Assembly: GCA_044892505.1 (NCBI GenBank) | Contig: CM097882.1 | Location: forward strand, 556,946,001 to 557,010,000 | DNA: 64,000 bases | DNA from: Schmidtea nova | Lineage: Eukaryota | Direction: 5' to 3' | Shown: positions 1,823 to 62,899 of the stretch, piece after piece | Numbering within the stretch: position 1 is the first letter of the stretch | How the letters are laid out: each line of letters starts with the position of its first letter | Program-made: the position numbers and the translations under genes | Notes under the pieces: generated by a model | Seen by the model: only the letters and a program-made list of their open reading frames with translations | What the model was told of the DNA's origin: nothing | Databases searched by the model: none

Positions 1823-1926
1823 AGTAACATTTCCATTATTAGTCATAATATAAGACGTTATTTCCAAAATTATATTCTATTTAAAACTGTAATATTTAAA
1901 CAAATATTAATCTAAATATCGTCACT
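1823..1926 (-). repeat. 3' LTR, 104 bp
   Basis: Base-for-base identical to 6293-6396 and immediately follows the PPT. Confidence 0.95.
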
Positions 1927-1936
1927 CTCCCCTTCT

Positions 1937-4900
1937 TTAAGAACTGTGATACTCTTTCAGCCATTCAATTCTTCTGCATCTTTTCCCACTTGGATATTCT
2001 AGTTCAACTTGGTGTTTCGTTGGGAAACCAAGAATCTTTACAGGACCTTCGAACAAATTACCATGCTTTGATCTCTTATGGGGATCCATTTTTACTAGAA
2101 CTCTCTGACCAACCTCAAAATGCCGATGAATTTTCTTATCTGCATCTCTTGATCTCATTTTATCTGCCGCTACCTTAATATTATTCTGTGCTGTCAATAA
2201 TACTTGTTCTCGATTAAGATCTATAAATGAATTCTTTCCATGTATATTAACCTTTCTTCCAAATAGTATTTCCATTGGCGAAAATCCCGTAGAACTCTGT
2301 GTTGTTGAGTTCAGGGAATATTCAATTTTTGGCATGATGTCATCCCAACACCCTCCAGTTTGCCCATCATTCAGAAATGTCACGATCATATCACGAACCG
2401 TTCGTATTACCCGTTCTGCTAAACCATTAGACTTATGATCATATGGTGAGGTAAATATCCATTCGATGTTAAAATTATCCATTAACCCTTTGATTTGACT
2501 TCCTTCGAAAACTTTACCTCTATCCGAAACAATGTAAGCTGGTTTACCGAATTTGTATATCCAATTGTGTAAAAGTACCCGATATATTGTCTTTTCATCT
2601 TGGTTCTGAGTAGGCGTTAAACTAACCATCTTGCTGAACTGATCAATTATTACTACCAAATAACGGTTACGGTTTCTGGTTTCTTTCATATGAGCAATAT
2701 CGATTACGATTTGTTCCATCGAACTCATTATTACCCTAGGAATTAAATACTCAGCTGTTTTACTTGTCAACACTTTCCTTCTCATGCATACATCACATTT
2801 TTTTATAATATCTCGTATATCGGTTACCATGTGTATCCAAAAGAAATAATCGTTCATATAATTTCTTGTTTTCTTAACTCCTAAATGACAGAGTTCTTTG
2901 TGCATATGCTGTACGACTTGTGACACCATTTTCTGCGGAATTATTATCTTCTGCTTATCATCATTTACTATTAATAACAGATTGTCTTTTACAAATATCT
3001 GATCCAGTCTTTTGGAATAAGGTGAATCCCGAATCAAGTGAGGTATCTCGGGACTCGGGTTTAGTACATATTTCTTTATTGTAGACAGCAAATTATCTGT
3101 TTCCTGATTCTCAATATATACCTGCATATTTAAATTACTTGAAGTAATCACGTTCAAAAATCTTATTCGGCTCTTCTCAAGTTTTCCTTCTTCGTGTTCG
3201 GTTTGACATTGTGAGCAATAACTTAGTAATATCCTCGATAGTCCATCAGCGTTACTATGATTTTCACCTTTCCTATATTTTAAATCAAAATCATAACCTG
3301 ACAACTCACTCAACCATGTTTGGAATTGTGGACTTATTGGTTTCGAAGTTGACTTTAAGAACTTTAAAGCCTTGTGATCCGTACGTATATCAAACTTTTT
3401 TCCATATAAATAATGCCGAAAATATAAGACGTACTCGTATATTTGCTAATAATTCTTTTCTAGACACACAGTATCCTTTCTCATGAGCACTTAAAAGTCT
3501 TGAACCATATGCTATGACTTTTTCACAACCATTTTGAACTTGGCTCAGAACAGCACCAATTCCGCTAAAACACGCATCAGTATCCAAAATAAAGTAATCG
3601 ACCTTATTTGGAAACGCCAATATTGGTGCACTCGATAGTGCATGCTTAAGTTTTTGGAAACTTTCCTCACACTCGTCATTCCATTTAATATCTTTTTCAT
3701 GTCCCTTTGTAGCTTCATATAACGGTTTGGCTATTTCAGCAAAATTTGGAACAAATTTGCGATAATAATTTGCTAATCCCAAAAATGAACGTAGTTGTTT
3801 ACTGCATTTCGGTATTTCAACCTCAATAATTCTTTTTATCATCTTGTTATTCGTGGATATACCTTCTGCTGAAATTTTATGCCCCAAGAATATCAATTCA
3901 CTTTTATAAAAACTACATTTCTTAGGATTGATCCTTAACCCCGCTAATTTAATTCGCTTGAAAACTTCCTCCAAATTTCTATTGTGTTCTTCGATAGTTT
4001 TTCCATATATCAGAACATCATCTAAATATGCTGCAACACCGTTATACAAAATATCATCAAATAATATGTGCATAAGTCTTTGGAAAGTTGCTGGAGCTGT
4101 GGATAATCCAAATGGCATTCGATTGTAGCAAAACTGTCCCTTCTTTGTAGAAAACGCTGTTTTTAACTGAGACGCCTCATCAACATATACCTGATAATAT
4201 GCCTGCCCCAAGTCTAGAGATGAAAAAACTGAAGATCCCGACAAAGAATCGAATATTGTTTGGGAGTCCGCCATTGGAAAACTGAATTTTTCAGTAACTT
4301 CATTGACTTTCCTAAAGTCTTGACACATTCTGATTGATCCATCTTTTTTACCTACCACGACCGTAGGTGAGTTCCATGGGCTTTGGCATTTCCTGATAAT
4401 GCCCATTTTTAATAATTTCATAATCATATCGTCCACTTTTGATTCCATTTGCATTGCCATGCGCCTGTGATTTTGAATTATTGGATTTCCCGACGTTTTT
4501 ATAGTATGAGTAACTAAACTAGTACAACCTAAATCAAAATCCGATGCCATGAAGATCGAACTATACATGGTTACTAACTCCACCAGTTTTGGATTTGGAT
4601 TTGGTCCAAAAACATCCAGCGCTTTTTGACATCGTTCTTTATCACTGTAGCTAACACCAACCGTATCTGAATCGATTAATGCAATTGATGTATCTGGCAC
4701 CAGTTTTATTTTAAAAGCTAAAATCAAATTCATTCCACCCACAAAACTTGGACTTATATCTCTAACCACAATTACCTTTACTTTCTGACACGATTCATTC
4801 CAAACAATTGAAGTCATAAAATCACCTAAGCATGATATCGGTTTATTTCCAAACGCACCTCTGAGCGCAATATCCAACGGTTTTAAAACTGGACTGCCAC

Positions 4901-5108
4901 ACTTTCTCCATATGGCCTCTGACATTACCGTAACCGATGCACCTGTATCCCACAACATCTCAGTCACTTTTCCACAACATTGAACAAAACTCCACCACCT
5001 TCCATCCGTCTTCTTGAACATCATAACATTTCGGTTTTCTGTGTTCTTCACATTTAATTCAACGACTCCACAGACGAAATGTTTGCCATGGAGCGTATCT
5101 CGTTTAAA
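1937..5108 (-). CDS. pol: Pol (protease, RT, RNase H, integrase), with a 1-nt insertion at about 3442-3444
   Basis: WDTGAS protease; MPFGL and YLDD RT; DTDAC RNase H; HHCC and DDE integrase. Removing one A restores KELLAIYEYVLYFRHYLYGKKFDIRTDHKAL and joins ORFs 3390-5051 and 1937-3313. Confidence 0.93.
5025..5108 (-). promoter_or_regulatory. -1 programmed ribosomal frameshift signal: slippery T_TTA_AAC plus H-type pseudoknot
   Basis: The heptamer is in gag phase, just after the last stop in the -1 frame. 7-nt spacer; S1 GCTCCATGG/CTGTGGAGT; S2 AACATTTCG/CGAAATGTT. Confidence 0.85.
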
Positions 5109-6316
5109 GGACGTTCTTTGTTAGTTCTTCTATGACCTCCTGTAATCGATCCTATTTCATTTACTTCAGATTCTGACGTGCCATCATTCTCAAGGTCTTC
5201 ATACGAATAAGTCAGATTTCCTAAATCATTCTCTTCTTGAATACAGTGGATTTTTCTTGTATTATTACTTCTTAATAGAGGGCAATTATTAAAAAAATGA
5301 TCATTTTTACCACATATTAAACAACATTTGCTTAAAGGACAACTGTTCCGAATATGACCTGATTCGCCACAACAATAACATTGACAGGGTTGTAAGGGTC
5401 GCAATTCTGGTTCCGGAAACCCTTCCGCTTTGTTGTAAACTCGTCTTGCAATATGTTTCATAGAAACCATAGGCCTATTGGGTCTCTCATTAACCAATAA
5501 ACTTTCTGAATTTCGCTTTCTTTCAGTGAAATGTGGTCTATTGCCATTTTTGTCGTAATTTCTTTTATTACTGACATACCGATTAGTCTCTGGAACTGAT
5601 GGTCTAATCACTGGGTGAACATTCTGCCTTACTGGGATTTTATTTCTTGTTACAGATGCATATGACGATTGTTTCCTATTATCTGCCAGTGCAAATATCT
5701 CTCTGGTGTCTTCTGTATGTAAATTATTTTCAAAGTTTACATTCATTTTCTCTATTTCTGTGAGAGATACTTCTGGGTTCATTGCAATTGCATCCTTAAC
5801 TTTTTCTGAATACATACGTTTTGTAACAATATCCTTGACAATCATGTCTTCCGTTTGATTTGCGGAAAGAACTTCACGGACTAATTTCCTCACTCTGATT
5901 ATAAAATTTTCAAACCTTTCGTCCGATCTCTGCTTTATCAGACTCATGTCTTCGATATTTTGTAAAAAACTTTTGGATTTTACATATTTTAAAATAAACC
6001 AACCTTTTACTTCTTGATCTGAAGCCGGAGTCTTAAGTGTCTCCTTAAAGGCCATCCATAATTCTTTTGCATCTCCGTGTAATAATTAATCGAATGCTGC
6101 TCCTAAATTGAGCGAATTTATCGTCACAAATTCTTCAATAGATTCAAGCCAGTCCTTTGCATTTTCTTCTTTTCCTCCAAAAAACTTTTTTATCACTGGG
6201 TAAATCGATTCTTGAAGATTTTTTGGCAAAGATTCTACAATTTTCTGCCTTTGTTGTGATCTTGTAATAGCTGCGATTTCGGCGTGGTCGCCAGTAACAT
6301 TTCCATTATTAGTCAT
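5054..6316 (-). CDS. gag: Gag with two zinc-knuckle motifs, interrupted by an in-frame TAA at 6088-6086
   Basis: ORFs 6086-6337 and 5054-6055 are in the same frame. Motifs FFGGKEENAKDWL, CYCCGESGHIRNSC and CLICGKNDHFFNNC. The only true ATG upstream of the body is at 6316 (6337 is TTG). Confidence 0.9.
6283..6293 (-). promoter_or_regulatory. Primer-binding site TGGCGACCACG (compatible with a tRNA-Arg(UCG)-type 3' end)
   Basis: TGG-initiated sequence abutting the 5' LTR. The tRNA assignment is from recall of ...CGUGGUCGCCA ends and has not been checked. Confidence 0.75.
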
Positions 6317-6396
6317 AATATAAGACGTTATTTCCAAAATTATATTCTATTTAAAACTGTAATATTTAAACAAATATTAATCTAAATATCGTCACT
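6293..6396 (-). repeat. 5' LTR, 104 bp
   Basis: Identical to 1823-1926; its last T is the first base of the PBS TGG. Confidence 0.95.
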
Positions 6397-41100: not shown

Positions 41101-42163
41101 GTAATATTCAATTACTAAATATAGAAAATAGTATAGATCATAATAGTAGCGCGGTTTCACGTACATTAGAATAACTATAAATACTGATAGTAAAGAGGGA
41201 CACAAAAATTTTAACTGATAATAACAGTAGAAAAATATTTATTTCAGAGCAAAATTATTTCAAGCGAGAAATATAGCATTTATTACTGCTACCATATTTG
41301 GAATATCTCTTTGTCAAAATATTGGTAATCATTTAATTTTTTTACCCTGAGTATTAGTATTATCTTTTAATACTATCTTACTCTTCAAATTTAAATTATT
41401 AGCAAGAATAATTGTTATAGGAAGAAATATCAACCAATTCTGGGTTGATTCTATCGCGTTGAATTTTAGGATATACCACAAATTTCTTTATACCTTACAC
41501 CAGTAGAAGCTGTTGAAATTATTAGATCTAACTTTCGCTCTTAACATCTGAGGACGGTTTGAACAACCGATATCTTGCTTCGTAAAATTATGACAACAAT
41601 TGTGGTATTTTAAATTTTTATTTGGGAAACTAAATTGTAAATCCAATTGTACTATTTATTAAATTTTTAGCTTAATCTATATTTGTTTTCTTTTTATTTA
41701 CACCCAACAAATATTATCATATTTATAGAGATTATCCTTTGGAGTCGGATAATTAATTGTTTGATTTTAAAGACAAATAATTATGTGTTGATTCGTAACC
41801 ACTGATACGAAAAAACAAGATCACAAATTGTAAAATAGATACGTTTTCCCGTATAATTACGCCATCAGCTTAAATATTCTGGAGACAAACAATAAAATGA
41901 CGATCATTTGAGAAGGTGTCTCTAAAGAGAAATATCAAAAATATGCACAGAAAGCAATTGCCAAAATCTGTTGGAAGATATATTTAAAAGCTGATATATA
42001 TTTACTGGCCTATTTATTCCAAAATTTAACATGTCATGATTTTGAATGGATTGACACAAATACGAGTTTACGGGCGAACTCAAGATATGTCCTTGACAAG
42101 AATTATTATAAATTATTTAACAACATATTATATGGCAAAAACCTAGAAAATTTACAGAAGAGC

Positions 42164-42379
42164 ATGAATTTGAGGCTTTACAATTCAGATGCAAAATTGT
42201 TAATATATATCTCCAAGCCAACATTCAAGAAATCAATCAAAATTGTAGATGCTTTAGTAACAGTAATATTAAAGAAATATTCAATCTACCTGGAAAGGAC
42301 AAGCTACATTGAAGGGGGGTGTCATGGTGCCTTGATACTTTTCATAAGGCATAACGTAGTACCTTCTGAAAGGAATGAA

Positions 42380-42470
<91 letters not shown>

Positions 42471-42950
42471 ACAAAATTATTTTGTATGTGTGAGCCTTAA
42501 ACCAAAAATTACCATATTGGTAGTTTTCATGGATTACTAAAAAATTTAATTAATCTTATGCACTCGAATCTCGAAATACTTTCGTATGATATAACCTTTG
42601 AAGTACATTTAGAGATTCCCACGTTAATTTACGATAAATTAAAAGATTTTCCCATTGTGACTGAAAGAATGCGTGTTCCAGGTTCTAAAGTTAAAAAGAT
42701 GATTCTCATGCATTATCTAAGAAAGAACCATGTTCTTCATTGGAGGCTTCTCAAACTCTTTGTTTCTTTGGGTGTTAAAATAACAATTGTTTATCGTACC
42801 ATTTATTACAGTCAAAAAACATGTTCAAGACATACATCGACACCAACACTCAACTTAGGGTGTCATCGAATAATACTACAAACTCTTGAATAATAGTCTC
42901 CGCGGTAGAAATGTAGATAATCTTAAAAAGCCCTTAATCTATATATCAGC
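42164..42950 (+). pseudogene. Polinton/Maverick-type protein-primed DNA polymerase B fragment, split by (TA)n
   Basis: YIEGGCHG resembles GIRGG. FEVHLEIPTLIYDKLKDFPIVTER...KNHVLHWRLLKLFVSLGVKITIVYRTIYYSQK resembles the EVDLEYP..LHD...P...YV.H...L...G.K....R.L.F.Q block of Polinton PolB. Confidence 0.7.
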
Positions 42951-43122: not shown

Positions 43123-44170
43123 TGTGATAAAAAATGTTTGAAATAAAGCTAGATTCAACGTTTATTCTTTATTACAAGATTATTTTTCAAATTCTGTTTC
43201 TCTTTGAAAATCACTCGATATAAACAAATCTATTTTCTTTTAAATTGATTATCTAAAAAAAAATAATTATCACATTCCCCCGTGATCAGTACGAATAATC
43301 CAACTCGTACTGATCAAGATAGGAAGGCTTCCTTCGGTTGCGAGCCAAGCGCGTGTCTTCCTCACTCTCTTCTGGATTTCTGATGTCAACCTGATTGTCT
43401 TCAAATTCGCATTCGACATCGCTGGATTCGATAGGTTGATTTGGCAACACTCGGATGTCTGCAACATGACGCGGTACTCCATCAACCTCTACGTTGGTAG
43501 GTGAATTAATGCCAGTGATGATTCCACTGGACCACTGATCAGTGCATTTGCTCAGAACTGGCTTTATAACAACATTCTGACAAGTTTTAAATTTACTAGA
43601 TACTACGCGCTCCTCCTCGACATCTCTGTGAAATTTCCATTTGTACTTAAATAGCCCCTCTGATGGAGCTGTACTCTGATCCTTCGCGTCTTTGGGTGCC
43701 ATGTTATACCAATAAACAATGTCCCGTGGGTCTGAACGACTCCTGGCTGCATGGTCTTTTATTGTCCGGTGGTTTCTCTCCACGATCCTATTCCCAGATG
43801 GATGGTAGGCACATCTGTATGTCGGCTTTACATCCCATCTACAACATAAATCTTGTAAGGATTTAGAATGAAAACTAGGCCCATTGTCCATGAGTAGCTC
43901 ACGAGGCGGACCTCTCTCTCGAAACACTTCTTCGAGATTTTTCACAATATTTTGTGCATCTTCATATGGTATCCTTCTTCAAATGGCAAATCTGCTAGGC
44001 CCACAATCAACGATAGTCAAGAAAATGGATCCTTCGTAGTGCGTTACATCTACAGCTAGCCTTTCCAATTTTTATTGACCCCTAATGATCCATTTTCCCA
44101 CTTAATTGGCGACGGATCGATTGATTTGCATTCAATACAATTTCTTACCACATTTTCTATGTAGTCTCGT
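43123..44170 (-). mobile_element. 3' half of a gypsy element: integrase remnant, PPT and 152-bp 3' LTR (43123-43274)
   Basis: CIECKSIDP...LAVDVTHY...DNGPSF...GNRIVERNHRTIK; PPT GGGGGAA; LTR with a perfect 8-bp terminal inverted repeat TGTGATAA...TTATCACA. Confidence 0.88.
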
Positions 44171-44173
44171 GGG

Positions 44174-45928
44174 GTGTCTGGGTTTTCTAACTATTATCGA
44201 AGGTTTATTAAAGACTACGCAAAAAAGTCAAGAGCTTTAGAGAGTATATGTGGTAAAAATAGCGACAAAATAATATGGAAGGAAAATTGTGAGCAGGCTT
44301 TTGAGAATATGAAGTTGGCATTGATAACCGCACCGATCTTGGTATTTCCGGATTTTAAGAAAGAATTCATATTGGATACGGACGCAAGTTTTGATACGAT
44401 TGGCGCAGTCTTATCACAGAAGGATGACATGGGATATGAGCAAGTTATCGCATATGGATCACATGCGATGAATGACCACGAAAGGGGTTATTGTATTACA
44501 AGAAAAGAACTTCTGGCTATATACTATTTTTGTCGACATTTCAACCACTATTTATATGGAAAAAGATTCACACTACGTACAGATCATAAGGCGATAACGT
44601 TTATTCTAACAACAAAGAAGCCAATTACAGCTCAATTCCAGACGTGGATAAACTATTTAAGCAGCCTTGATATAAAAATGGAATTTAGAAAAGGTACATT
44701 ACATGCTAACGCAGACATGTTCTCGAGGAAAACGTGTGGCACATGTGTGCAATGCCTTATGAATCACGATAATCCTAAAATGGGAAGAATGAAAACCAGA
44801 TTGTTAAGTATAATGACTGAAGGGAAAGGAGAAGAATGGCAAAGAAATTGTGAAGAAATAGAGGACATTAAAAATAAAATAAGAACTCAACCAAGTAAAA
44901 GGTTTATTATAGAAGATAACATTTTATACACCAAAGGAAAAAGAATATGGATACCAGAAAGTAAAAGAAGAGAAATGATTAAGAAAACACATTTATTATT
45001 ATGTCATGCCGGAGTTGATAAAGTTATCAAATACATACAAAACAATTTTGATATGAGAGATTTAATAAATGAGGTAAAAACAGCAATATCAAACTGCGAA
45101 TCGTGCCAAAAAGTTAAAGTTGTAACTACAAAGATGAAAGAGAAATCAAAAGTACTTGAAGCATCAGAACCTTTCGAGAAAATATATATGGAGATCTGTG
45201 GCCCAATGAAAGAAACATTTAACAAGAAAAGATACATTTGCGCAATAATCGACCATTACAGTAAATACATTTCGCTAACAGCAATAAATAAACAGGATGA
45301 AGAGACAATTGGGAAGATATTGTTAAACAATTGGATTCTAAAATTTGGGGCACCCAAGGAACTACATGTAGATTGCGGGAAAACATTCGAAGCGAATAGC
45401 ATAAAGAATATAAGCAAGAAAGCAGGGATCGAAATAGTGTATTCGAGTCCATATCATCATAATACGAATGGTATAATCGAAAGACAATTCCGGACAATAA
45501 GAGATTTTATTAATGCATCACTGAAAGACGGAAATACAAAAGACTGGGCAGATCTTATTCCAGATATAGAATATACACTCAACGCGAAAGTCCAAAAAAC
45601 AACGGGAGTAAGTCCAGCTGAAATTGTTTTTGGTAGGAGAATTGATAGATCGAAATGGTATAGTGATAGTAGAATCAACAGAAAAGAAATAGCATTGAAA
45701 ATTGAAAGTAAAAAACTAAATGACGAAAGAACAACTGCAAGGAAGTTTGAAGTGGGAGACAAAGTGTTAATCAAACGAGAAATACGAAACAAGGATCAAG
45801 ATAGGTATGAAGGACCATACACGGTAACAAAACGAATACACGATCGTAGTTATATGCTGAGAGATAAATGTGGAAAGTCTTTAATCAGGAATAATGAAAA
45901 GATTAAAGAATTTAAAGAAGGGGAATGA
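44174..45928 (+). CDS. pol: 5'-truncated gypsy pol (RT connection, RNase H, integrase), same lineage as the 1823-6396 element
   Basis: 584-aa open frame with DTDAS, RKELLA, TDHKA, CESC and GIIER. PPT AAAGAAGGGGA at the end, as in the first element. Confidence 0.92.
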   Translation: MSGFSNYYRRFIKDYAKKSRALESICGKNSDKIIWKENCEQAFENMKLALITAPILVFPDFKKEFILDTDASFDTIGAVLSQKDDMGYEQVIAYGSHAMNDHERGYCITRKELLAIYYFCRHFNHYLYGKRFTLRTDHKAITFILTTKKPITAQFQTWINYLSSLDIKMEFRKGTLHANADMFSRKTCGTCVQCLMNHDNPKMGRMKTRLLSIMTEGKGEEWQRNCEEIEDIKNKIRTQPSKRFIIEDNILYTKGKRIWIPESKRREMIKKTHLLLCHAGVDKVIKYIQNNFDMRDLINEVKTAISNCESCQKVKVVTTKMKEKSKVLEASEPFEKIYMEICGPMKETFNKKRYICAIIDHYSKYISLTAINKQDEETIGKILLNNWILKFGAPKELHVDCGKTFEANSIKNISKKAGIEIVYSSPYHHNTNGIIERQFRTIRDFINASLKDGNTKDWADLIPDIEYTLNAKVQKTTGVSPAEIVFGRRIDRSKWYSDSRINRKEIALKIESKKLNDERTTARKFEVGDKVLIKREIRNKDQDRYEGPYTVTKRIHDRSYMLRDKCGKSLIRNNEKIKEFKEGE

Positions 45929-55527: not shown

Positions 55528-56531
55528 GAATTTTGCATAAAAAGATAATTAAAATACAATTTTTAGAATAAATTGTTTTTTCAATGGTAGCGAATGAATC
55601 TTGTTGCAGGACCCTTTCCAGTGATTATTTAACAGACTAATATTGTATTTGATGATAATTTACTATAAAGACGAGTTTGGCGTCACCTTCTATGCATTCT
55701 TAAAAGATTCTGCAAAGCCAACGTCAAAGAAAGTGGTGTCTGTCACTCTATTAATTTGACTTTTTTGGAGTTATAAATTTGATTATTTTTTTAAATTAAT
55801 TTCTAAATTTAATTAATTGTGTAAATAAAATTTCCTTCACTAATGTTGTTAACTTTAATTAACAATATTAGATAAATCAAGTCCATTCGACATACTAATT
55901 CCTCTTTACATAATCATTTTATCATAATTATCTTTTTTCACCTTTGATGTTTTTTTATTATTATCAATAATTCTCATAATGACTATAGATCAAAATTATT
56001 TTTATAAACAATACCACAATATTTCGGCACAGTCTTTAAACACACTTGATAAAGGCTGTGCCAAATATTGTGTTATTGTTTATAAAAATAATTTTGATCT
56101 ATAGTCATCATTATGGGAATTATTGATAATAATAATCATTTTACATAAAAATATTTTTACTATAAAAATATGCTCGGCAGATACACAATTAAAACGTTAA
56201 TATAAATCCTCAAGGACATTTAAAATTTTTCTTTAACTATTTCACTCTGCCTCCAAGTTTATCATCGATTTAAATTTTTTTGGTAAGCCGTCTTCATTTA
56301 ATAAAATTATTTTCTGGTGTTTTATCTAGTAGGACATAGAAAGACAGGAAAACGATCGACTCCGACTCCCGACTCCTTTCAGTTTCAATAAGGCATCGCA
56401 CGATTCCAAAAATTGATCACTGAAAATTTTTTTGACTTTTGAAATTTGGTTATCACTATAAGATACTTTTTTTAGATCGTTGTTTTACGTTACACCTATA
56501 AAAGAAGCTTCAGGAAATTCAAATACGCCTA

Positions 56532-57511
56532 TCCCCTGATTTACACAGTACTTTCTTTGCACGTTTTCGCTTTTACACAGTTTCGAAAATTATATATTTT
56601 TTATTTCATTCTTATCCGACATATTTAATAATAATATGCATATGTAAAATAAAAAAATCAACACCGAATGCATGCTGGAAAACAATATGGCCAGAAGTTG
56701 TTGGAACAGGCAATATTGTTTCACCAGTAGAGACTGAATATACACAAATTATTGAATCAGCAAATACCTTGAGAGGGGAAGGATTCAAAGATTTAGCAGA
56801 ATTAGTGGTAGATCATGGTTTGGATGAAGATGATCTAGTAAACATGGGGGACTTACCCAATGATCCTGATCCTAATAACACCAGTGATAATGAGGAAGAA
56901 CGGTTAGAATTAACTCCAACGATTGTTCATGAAGGTCTTGAATTAGGTAAAAAATTTGAAAAATATTTTTTAAATCATGATCCAGTTGTTGAGCGAGCTA
57001 ATCAATTTCAAAGAGAACTCAATCAATATTTGGCGAAATATCAAGAAATCTATAAAGATTTGCCCAAAAATAGCACTCAACTGTTAATTACAGATCTTGT
57101 GAAAAAGATCACACAGGAAGAAGTTCCTACACAGTCTATAAATGATTCAGAAATATCCATTTCAAGCGACGAAAGTGAAATTTTTCCATTTCGAAAGAGA
57201 AGGCAGAACATTGAGGATTCTGATGATTAAAATTTAGTAACACTTTACTTTGTTTTATAAAATGAATTAAACCTTTTTATTTTATGTTTAAATTAATATA
57301 AATTTCTTTCTGTTTTGTTATAAACATTTTTTCATTTAACCAGTTTTTTACCCAATGTTTCAGTTTCCATTGATTTATAGGTCCGATTTGCGAGTTTACT
57401 TCTTTGTTGGAACCAATCCCTTACAAATATACTATATGTCTTTGTCCCCATTTACACGGTTTCGATTTACACGGAATTCTCGGGAACCAATCTACCTTGT
57501 AAATCGGGGAA
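56532..57511 (+). mobile_element. pogo/Tigger-like deletion derivative carrying the transposase C-terminus (ORF 56769-57230)
   Basis: Imperfect TIR TCCCCTGATTTACA / TTCCCCGATTTACA flanked by TA; NACWKTIWPEVV and an acidic TIGD1-like tail. Confidence 0.75.
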
Positions 57512-60607: not shown

Positions 60608-61215
60608 ATGGAAATTTTGAAATATTTGAAAAAATTCGATGGAACCGGCAATGTTGCAAGCTGGTTTGCTCAACTCAAATCAATTGTAAAGATGTTGAAG
60701 ATAGAAACTATAGAAGTTTTTATGCCTATTATTTTGAAAAGCGATGCATATGCCGTCTACGAACATTTATCAGAAAAGGACAACGCTAGTTTTGAAGCAA
60801 TCGAGGATGCATTGGAAAAAGCTTTTTCTCCAAGTATGTTTTTATCATAAGAAAAAATGAGAAATTTAGATGGACTGGAGGATCAGTGGATGTTTTTTTG
60901 GCCGATCTAAGATTTCATGCAAAGCTTGCAAGAGTGAATGAGAACTCCGTTAGGAACGCTTTTGTCGTAGGACTACCTAAAGACGTGTCGAGATTGTAGC
61001 AGGGTTCTCCAAAGATTGATACTATGCCAATGGAGGATATTGTTCAGATAACACGGGCAATGATGAATACGAGAGTTCAAGACATTGAATGTGTCAACGT
61101 TGTATATAACAAAGTAAAACGCTGTACTCATTGCGACAAGATTGGCCACGTAGCTGAACGTTGTTTTAAGAAGTTTGGTACAAGGTGTTGGTCTTGTAAC
61201 GGCACCGATCATATA
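60608..61215 (+). pseudogene. gag: Gypsy gag remnant
   Basis: KKFDGTGNVASW...ALEKAFS; CTHCDKIGHVAERC knuckle; stops and frameshifts. Confidence 0.8.
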
Positions 61216-62899
61216 TCTCACGAACAGAAACAAAGTACAGAACCTTCGACAGAGAGTTACTAGCCATGGTGCTTTCCATTAAACATTTCAGGCACTTTAT
61301 TGAAGGCAGACACTTCACCGTTTTCACCGACCACAAACCACTTCTACACTGTCTTACCATACAGAATCAGTCAAATAGAGTATTCCGTCAACTAGCATTT
61401 TTATTTTCTTTCGACTTCGAGATCAAGCACATCGCAGGACGAGATACCTTCATCGCAAACTGTTTTTCCGCAACAGTCGTAAATTCAATATCTTTCTCTT
61501 CCTTCTTTTCACTGGATACTCTTTTTTCTAAATCGCCATCCAAGACTGACATCTCTAAATTCAAAGAATCCCACAAATTTATCGACGGCATGCATTATGA
61601 CACATCTTTAACAATTCACTACGGCCCATATTACAAGAATCCCTCCGCAAAGACGCATTTCTTGCAATCCATAACCTTTACCATCCTGGCATCAAATATA
61701 CATTCGCACTGCTCCGTCAGAAAGTCAACTAGTACACCCTGTTCAACGACGTTAAACGGTTGGTGAATGAGTGCAAAGGCTGTTCAACAGCAAAAAGTGA
61801 ATAAACACACCAAACCACCGTTCACTGCATTCCCGACTGGTTCACGCTTTGACATCAGACATATCGACCTAGTAGGACCACTGCCACCAGACGTAGGTTT
61901 ATCCTATATCTTCACAATGATAGATCGAAAGACATGTTGGCTCAAAGCAATCACCATTCCTAATATTACAACCCAAACAGTCACAGATTTTTTCGCCTCT
62001 AGTTGGTTCTCTCGTTACAACATACAGTCGGCCATCATCACAGTCCAAGGACACGAATTCGAAGCAGAGCTGTTCAATTATATGACAAATTCCCTCGACA
62101 TCAAACACTTACGCACTTCCTCATACCATTCCCAGACCAACGGCGTCGTGGAATGCGCTCATTGCACTATCAAAACATCACTTCGTATTCTCTCTATTTC
62201 ATCAATATGGACCAAATCTTTACCTTTCGTACTACTAGGATGGCACAATACTCCTAATCGTTCTAGTGGAGTTATTCCCTCGCAATTACTATTCGGCATG
62301 AATACACGTATGCCATCCGAACTACTAGAGACCGATTCAGACTACTCCCTACAACAGGTAAACCATGCCAGCAACCACTTCTTATTCTCAGACTCCAACC
62401 TGTCCTCAACATACTCAACACTGTACAAACCCTAAATCCCAAAATCACTCCTCTTAACTTCGCACGCCTGGTTAAAATGTTACGATACTTCAAATCCCGC
62501 TACAAAGGACCTTTCTCGGTGATAAATTCTTAAAAATACACTGCACAATAAGATATCGACGGTGCAGCACACATTATAAGCTTGAACCACCTCAAACCTG
62601 CTCTTGTTCTAAATGGTCAACACGACCTACCCAACTTCATCTCCCAGTCGACGTAGATTTGATAGAAGACTCTTCCTGTATTCCACCCCTGTACTGACCC
62701 TCTCGCCTCTATTCCACTCACCAACCCTTTATCCGGCCTATATACAACCACCTGCATCCGCCGCCCCGCATAATACCTCGTAGATTACCTGCTAGACACT
62801 ACCGTCGTTAGTTAATACTCTTAGTTCTTTCAGTCCCCATTCGCTCCGCGTATTTCGGCGATGGCTAGTGTAGTGCCTCTGCTTTAAAATATATTGCAT

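Follow-up and report, generated by a model that had tools for sequence, protein, structure and literature searches.

How does the retrotransposon in this window (the whole stretch of 64,000 nucleotides that was analysed) translate a pol gene that overlaps gag in the −1 frame? A sequence-only reading of the locus had proposed a coronavirus-style −1 frameshift cassette, made of a U_UUA_AAC slippery heptamer and a long-loop H-type pseudoknot. We found this proposal supported by covariation of the stems, a conserved heptamer register, the geometry of the two reading frames, and the dipeptides K-N and L-N at the slip position of related Gag proteins. Below, family A denotes the family of the window copy, and B, C, D and E denote four other gypsy families of the same genome.

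The carrier element and its gag-pol junction

The cassette lies where gag meets pol in a 4.6-kb Ty3/gypsy LTR retrotransposon, within an AT-rich window of a 1.25-Gb genome. The element is laid out as follows:

6293..6396, minus strand: 5' LTR, 104 nt, with ends AGT...ACT, followed by a primer-binding-site-like stretch
5054..6316, minus strand: gag, with its ATG inside the 5' LTR
1937..5120, minus strand: pol in the −1 frame, encoding protease, reverse transcriptase (RT), RNase H and integrase (Pfam; the protease match is weak)
1823..1926, minus strand: 3' LTR, with the same sequence as its 5' counterpart and a polypurine tract before it

The assignment to Ty3/gypsy follows from the LTRs, the domain order PR-RT-RH-IN and the nearest solved RTs in the PDB, which by sequence are 4ol8_A (RT/RNase H, E 4e-66) and 7q5b_A (Ty3-G Gag-Pol, E 8e-65). 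The LTR termini read AGT...ACT instead of TG...CA, and a 5-bp target-site duplication flanks both ends of the element, as 5-bp duplications do in four of the five other copies with located LTRs. The gag product gives a weak Pfam match to the C-terminal part of capsid and contains Cys/His zinc-knuckle-like motifs that were spotted by eye. Between pol and the 3' LTR, no env-like third frame of at least 80 codons was found. The window copy is itself defective: gag is interrupted early by a stop at 6088-6086, and the RNase H frame is broken near 3,440. Because the premature stop lies upstream, the cassette in this copy is likely idle.

As a minor observation, in the region from the gag ATG onwards (6316-6280, minus strand) the primer-binding-site-like stretch is translated within gag as the peptide T-G-D-H, which is kept in five of five full-length homologues and in families B and D. 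Elsewhere, the window holds frames without a Pfam match at 56502-57230 (plus strand, 242 codons) and 41912-42493 (plus strand, 193 codons, entering a TA repeat), along with fragments of other LTR retrotransposons with RNase H and integrase domains at 44165-45928 (plus), 43286-43978 (minus) and 61200-62435 (plus).

Re-reading of the junction gave the following features:

5102..5108, minus strand: slippery heptamer U_UUA_AAC, encoding L-N in the gag phase (re-reading and close copies)
5095..5101, minus strand: spacer, 7 nt (5-6 nt in families B-E)
5086..5094, minus strand: stem 1 (S1), 5' arm (re-reading and covariation across families)
5085-5084, minus strand: loop 1 (L1), 2 nt
5075..5083, minus strand: stem 2 (S2), 5' arm (re-reading and covariation)
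5074..5074, minus strand: L2, a lone unpaired U between the stems, identical in five of five families
5065..5073, minus strand: S1, 3' arm (re-reading and covariation)
5034..5064, minus strand: L3, 31 nt, containing the gag stop TAA at 5056-5054 (about 21-24 nt in families B-E)
5025..5033, minus strand: S2, 3' arm (re-reading and covariation)
5019..5024, minus strand: two ATG codons of the pol frame (ATG ATG), immediately 3' of the pseudoknot (frame reading)

The heptamer TTTAAAC, with codons CCT TTA AAC in the gag phase, agreed base for base with the earlier description, as did the spacer, the 9-bp S1 with its three G-U pairs, the lengths of all three loops, the nine Watson-Crick pairs of S2 and the placement of the gag stop within L3. 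One detail required correction: the pol frame opens 12 nt (four codons) before the heptamer, at 5120, and not 9 nt before it. From that point the frame stays open through the cassette and into the protease, as had been claimed. Pol should be annotated as part of a Gag-Pol fusion rather than as starting at GTG 5051 or Met 5024, and the Met after the pseudoknot is possibly a protease cleavage site or an internal start. To the 96 nt after the heptamer we applied a custom pseudoknot finder that admits perfect helices only and scores stacking energy without loop penalties. The best H-type pseudoknot it returned was exactly the claimed geometry (stacking −28.5 kcal/mol), a value reached by 0 of 1000 dinucleotide shuffles (shuffle mean −5.5).

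Family A is young and present at high copy number. All 40 scored DNA matches in the genome had 99-100% identity, and the 150 protease matches listed were all at least 95% identical, many of them with an unbroken pol frame of 1060 codons. Thirty close copies, about 99% identical, all had a canonical heptamer (two as the variant U_UUA_AAU), and they showed one variant in L3 and zero changes in the stems. Such near-identity makes close copies uninformative for covariation, so the proposed check of covariation across family copies gave nothing within family A and was productive only across the other families. A contig from another organism also spans the cassette; it has 28 differences, and the 25 of these that were listed include two in L3 (one at 5039) and none in the heptamer, S1 or S2. 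Fused single-frame gag-pol copies are rare, with one among the 150 matches listed and one of 45 in the Pol-protein search that yielded family B; in L351 and L217, which have fused frames of 1469 and 1477 codons, the fusion comes from an extra base inside the cassette.

Cassette relatives and covariation of the two stems

Families B-E each have the cassette, in a register matching that of A. Family B was found via a public Pol protein and family C via a protease motif, in searches independent of the cassette, and families D and E were found by patterns comprising the 5' arm of S2 and the 3' arm of S1 without their partner arms, the pattern for E additionally containing the end of the heptamer. 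Gag identity over the aligned part is 31-40% between families, and 54% for D and E. The heptamer is A_AAA_AAC in B-E and U_UUA_AAC in A, all fitting X_XXY_YYZ, and it was canonical in 30/30 copies of A, 30/30 of B, 19/27 of C, 17/19 of D and 14/15 of E, counts that leave out copies without a located cassette (3/30 in C and 1/20 in D). Family B is young and intact; family C is old and decayed.

The frames have the same arrangement throughout. The pol frame opens 4, 9, 9, 4 and 2 codons before the heptamer in A, B, C, D and E, respectively, contains 7-15 stops per 100 codons upstream of that opening, and is open through the cassette in all five families, and the gag stop lies 17 codons past the slip site in each of them. 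In B-E, S1 is longer by one outer G-C pair and the spacer is correspondingly shorter; the longest perfect S1 helix measures 11 bp in C, 11 in D and 10 in E, and is interrupted in B.

A Pol tree of local and unnamed rows gave no clear placement of family A with B-E. Searches with RT motifs also retrieved sister gypsy families with about 40% Pol identity. The core motif of the cassette was absent from all ten sister-family loci examined, and in nine of these ten the pol frame is closed by a stop 40-173 codons ahead of the protease; four loci without the cassette (L066, L076, L089 and L099) have a pol frame that opens 119-173 codons before it. A pattern of TTAAAC, a gap and the protease motif was tried as a finder of relatives and rejected, its matches being mostly chance hits or unrelated single-frame elements. 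A metagenome scan of 56 loci returned only weak matches of zinc-knuckle type, and viral contigs scanned for relatives gave no match.

We assessed covariation in an alignment of one natural copy from each of the five families (19 pairs, 94 cells). Pairing was possible in 94.7% of the 94 cells, and 6 of the 19 pairs showed change on both sides (four of the ten S1 pairs and two S2 pairs). The covariation score was 0.326 versus 0.185 in shuffles, with 0 of 500 shuffles as high, a count that cannot be read as a probability given that only five related lineages are compared. When partners were slid by 1-3 columns, pairing fell to 30-55%. One S1 pair appears as U-A, C-G or G-U according to family (G-G in B), two others swap C-G and U-A, and another runs through C-G, U-G and U-A; in S2, the two outermost pairs are A-U in family A and U-A in families B and C. 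S1 was also recovered unaided by RNAalifold, a program that draws no pseudoknots. The compensating changes alter the encoded residues (gag N to F together with pol V to E, and gag S/E to P/G), which argues that protein conservation is not their explanation.

In S2, seven of the nine columns are invariant and both frames read through the 5' arm, which leaves two pairs as the basis of S2 covariation. In family B, S1 contains a G-G mismatch and the inner S2 pair is G-A; the finder missed this family's pseudoknot, with 251 of 1000 shuffles as good. In family D, seven of the nine S2 positions pair. Taken together, the alignment supports an H-type pseudoknot with two crossing stems, each of which is backed by compensatory change, and the loss of S1 and S2 complementarity in relatives that would have spoken against the earlier proposal was not what we found: both stems covary over the five families.

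A slip-site signature in distant Gag proteins

We then turned to Gag relatives from protein searches of public assemblies, which are proteins without their DNA. Of 32 that entered, 29 had an I-S-S-V-like tail, a fraction to be read with the search profile in mind, as the profile contained the tail and was biased toward its conservation; the three proteins without the tail motif were dropped, and 11 further tails, distant or truncated, were left out. At the slip position, 17 of the 29 tails have K-N and 11 have L-N (28/29, compared to a background of 13/1421), the dipeptides encoded by A_AAA_AAC and U_UUA_AAC.

The tails also carry a trace of S1. The two residues that encode one S1 pair occur as P/G in 11 proteins, S/E in 8, S/G in 1 and P/E in 0, a linkage of P/G versus S/E with a Fisher p of 7e-5 when kinship is ignored. 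A codon starting with G is implied at the site of a needed S1 G-C pair in 28 of the 29 tails. Across all tails, 164 of 174 S1 positions were able to pair, compared to 72-115 when the arms were slid, and 8 of 2000 permutations did as well. In a Gag tree built with the tail excluded, S/E occurs both in the family A clade and, a second time, within P/G elements (family B), a pattern that points to repeated change. A sub-group with tails of the form Q-P/L-P/A ... R/G/E-L (P0050, P0071, P0049, P0051, P0092 and P0130) showed a poorer S1 fit, at five of six positions, and S1 in these proteins' genes may be bulged or shifted.

Probable frameshifting, rival explanations and known systems

The anatomy of the junction, the −1 overlap, the conservation and the covariation lead us to regard it as highly probable that the cassette is a programmed −1 frameshift signal, in which the pseudoknot would pause the ribosome, a tandem slip would take place on the heptamer, and reading would carry on into pol. 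In the predicted mechanism, the ribosomes on gag would meet an H-type pseudoknot, and pause there, once they reach the heptamer (U_UUA_AAC or A_AAA_AAC), which lies 5-7 nt before the first stem. This predicted stimulator has an S1 of 9-11 bp, an L1 of about 2 nt, an S2 of 7-10 bp, a junction U and an L3 of 21-31 nt. A minority of ribosomes would slip back by one base and produce protease, RT, RNase H and integrase; the remainder would terminate 17 codons on, within L3, and the split between the two outcomes would set the ratio of Gag to Gag-Pol. That both stems fold simultaneously in the cell, along with the pause, the slip and its rate, is what we infer from comparison of sequences.

One alternative is that frameshifting is driven by an S1 hairpin alone, or in family A by a switch between the pseudoknot and a competing hairpin, with S2 incidental or regulatory. 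The lowest-energy nested fold of the window copy extends S2 by a further helix, S3 (5074-5069 with 5043-5038), at −18.1 kcal/mol, and this S2+S3 hairpin occupies the S1 3' arm and thus blocks S1. For B, C and E the nested fold contains S1 only, and covarying pairs in S2 number only two, both of which would suit such a reading. S3 is present in family A only, however: its pairs form in 53% of cells across families, a level matched by 48-187 of 500 shuffles, and in the contig from the other organism it is the S3 base 5039 that has changed while the heptamer, S1 and S2 are intact among the listed differences. The sequence of the S2 3' arm is also kept across L3 lengths of 21-30 nt, and we consider this alternative improbable.

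Pol might instead be made without frameshifting, by an internal start or re-initiation at a conserved Met or from a spliced RNA, with the structure serving initiation, packaging or dimerisation. A Met does lie shortly after S2 in the pol frame, before the protease, in five of five families, and two publicly available Pol proteins, P0001 and P0002, are annotated from a Met in this region. Such a scheme would leave unexplained the canonical heptamer, its fixed distance from the structure and its toggling between two shifty forms, as well as a pol frame that is open from the heptamer to the Met, and the conserved Met may mark a protease cleavage site; we find this explanation very improbable. Less probable still is a change of frame by slippage of a polymerase or reverse transcriptase in the A/U run rather than by the ribosome. 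Slippage of this kind has been proposed for some Drosophila elements (PMC5737552), and the rare copies with fused gag-pol frames would be compatible with it. U_UUA_AAC contains no long homopolymer, however, and a run held in codon phase with a structure 5-7 nt on its 3' side has a ribosomal geometry.

Programmed frameshifting as a mechanism is already known from PEG10, Ma3 and retroviruses, and −1 overlaps occur frequently among the LTR retrotransposons of animals. A 2003 survey cited in PMC5009743 is reported to have placed pol in −1 in 28 of 51 animal LTR retroelements, many of them with well-placed heptamers, as in the overlap and heptamer seen here. A_AAA_AAC and U_UUA_AAC rank with the most shift-prone heptamers in mammalian ribosomes (PMC5009743). 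The papers searched describe pseudoknot stimulators for viruses, PEG10 and Ma3 and not for mobile gypsy families, and literature searches covering titles and the opening lines of abstracts gave no description of a pseudoknot in this gypsy clade. An Rfam search of the window at E up to 10 gave only weak chance matches to snoRNA, lncRNA and sRNA families, and searches with four loci gave none. The cassette is real, well supported by the comparison and without an Rfam entry; covariation across five families and a 28/29 protein signature extend what was one predicted fold to an RNA family with defined features.

The closest counterparts are the gypsy-derived genes PEG10 and Ma3, which use pseudoknots (PMC5009743). 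PEG10/Edr and PNMA3 (Ma3) have in common with our cassette a Ty3/gypsy origin, a position at the gag/pol junction, an X_XXY_YYZ heptamer with an H-type pseudoknot, and a gag stop inside a pseudoknot loop. They are domesticated single-copy mammalian genes, whereas the cassette here belongs to a mobile clade of several families, and PEG10 combines GGGAAAC (G_GGA_AAC) with a compact H-type pseudoknot (PMC13622457), compared to U_UUA_AAC or A_AAA_AAC and an L3 of 21-31 nt here. Yeast Ty3 shares the domain order PR-RT-RH-IN and is a best PDB match, but its shift is +1, at GCG_AGU_U, and is described as having no paired stimulator (PMC5009743).

The earlier claim of a close resemblance to the IBV/coronavirus pseudoknot held in part. 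IBV and family A have in common U_UUA_AAC (the other four families use A_AAA_AAC), a short spacer, a long S1 and an L3 of about 30 nt, the coronavirus class having an S1 of about 11 bp and an L3 of about 30 nt (PMC7618472). The likeness stops at S1, which in the window has 9 bp and falls below the IBV minimum of 11 bp (PMC5009743, PMC7618472), at the Rfam searches, and at the conserved unpaired junction U and the retrotransposon carrier, both unlike IBV. With neither a sequence match nor an Rfam match, and with a retrotransposon as carrier, we interpret the coronavirus likeness as convergence and not descent.

A broader reading is tentative and, in our view, rather unlikely. A deep animal gypsy clade may have kept one frameshift pseudoknot, its core (the S2 helix, the lone junction U and fixed S1 pairs) near letter-for-letter, while Gag fell to about 30% identity; this pseudoknot may represent a separate class of long-loop stimulator, one able to act with only 9-10 bp in S1, short of the 11 bp that IBV needs, through its conserved junction architecture or a bound factor; and the competing hairpin in family A could switch Gag-Pol output. 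The five natural variants vary in their heptamer and in the lengths of S1 and L3, and would provide a series for the stem-length and junction rules derived from coronaviruses. Frameshift spacers are usually 5-9 nt (PMC7618472), and those of the cassette fall within this range, at 7 nt in the window and 5-6 nt in its relatives.
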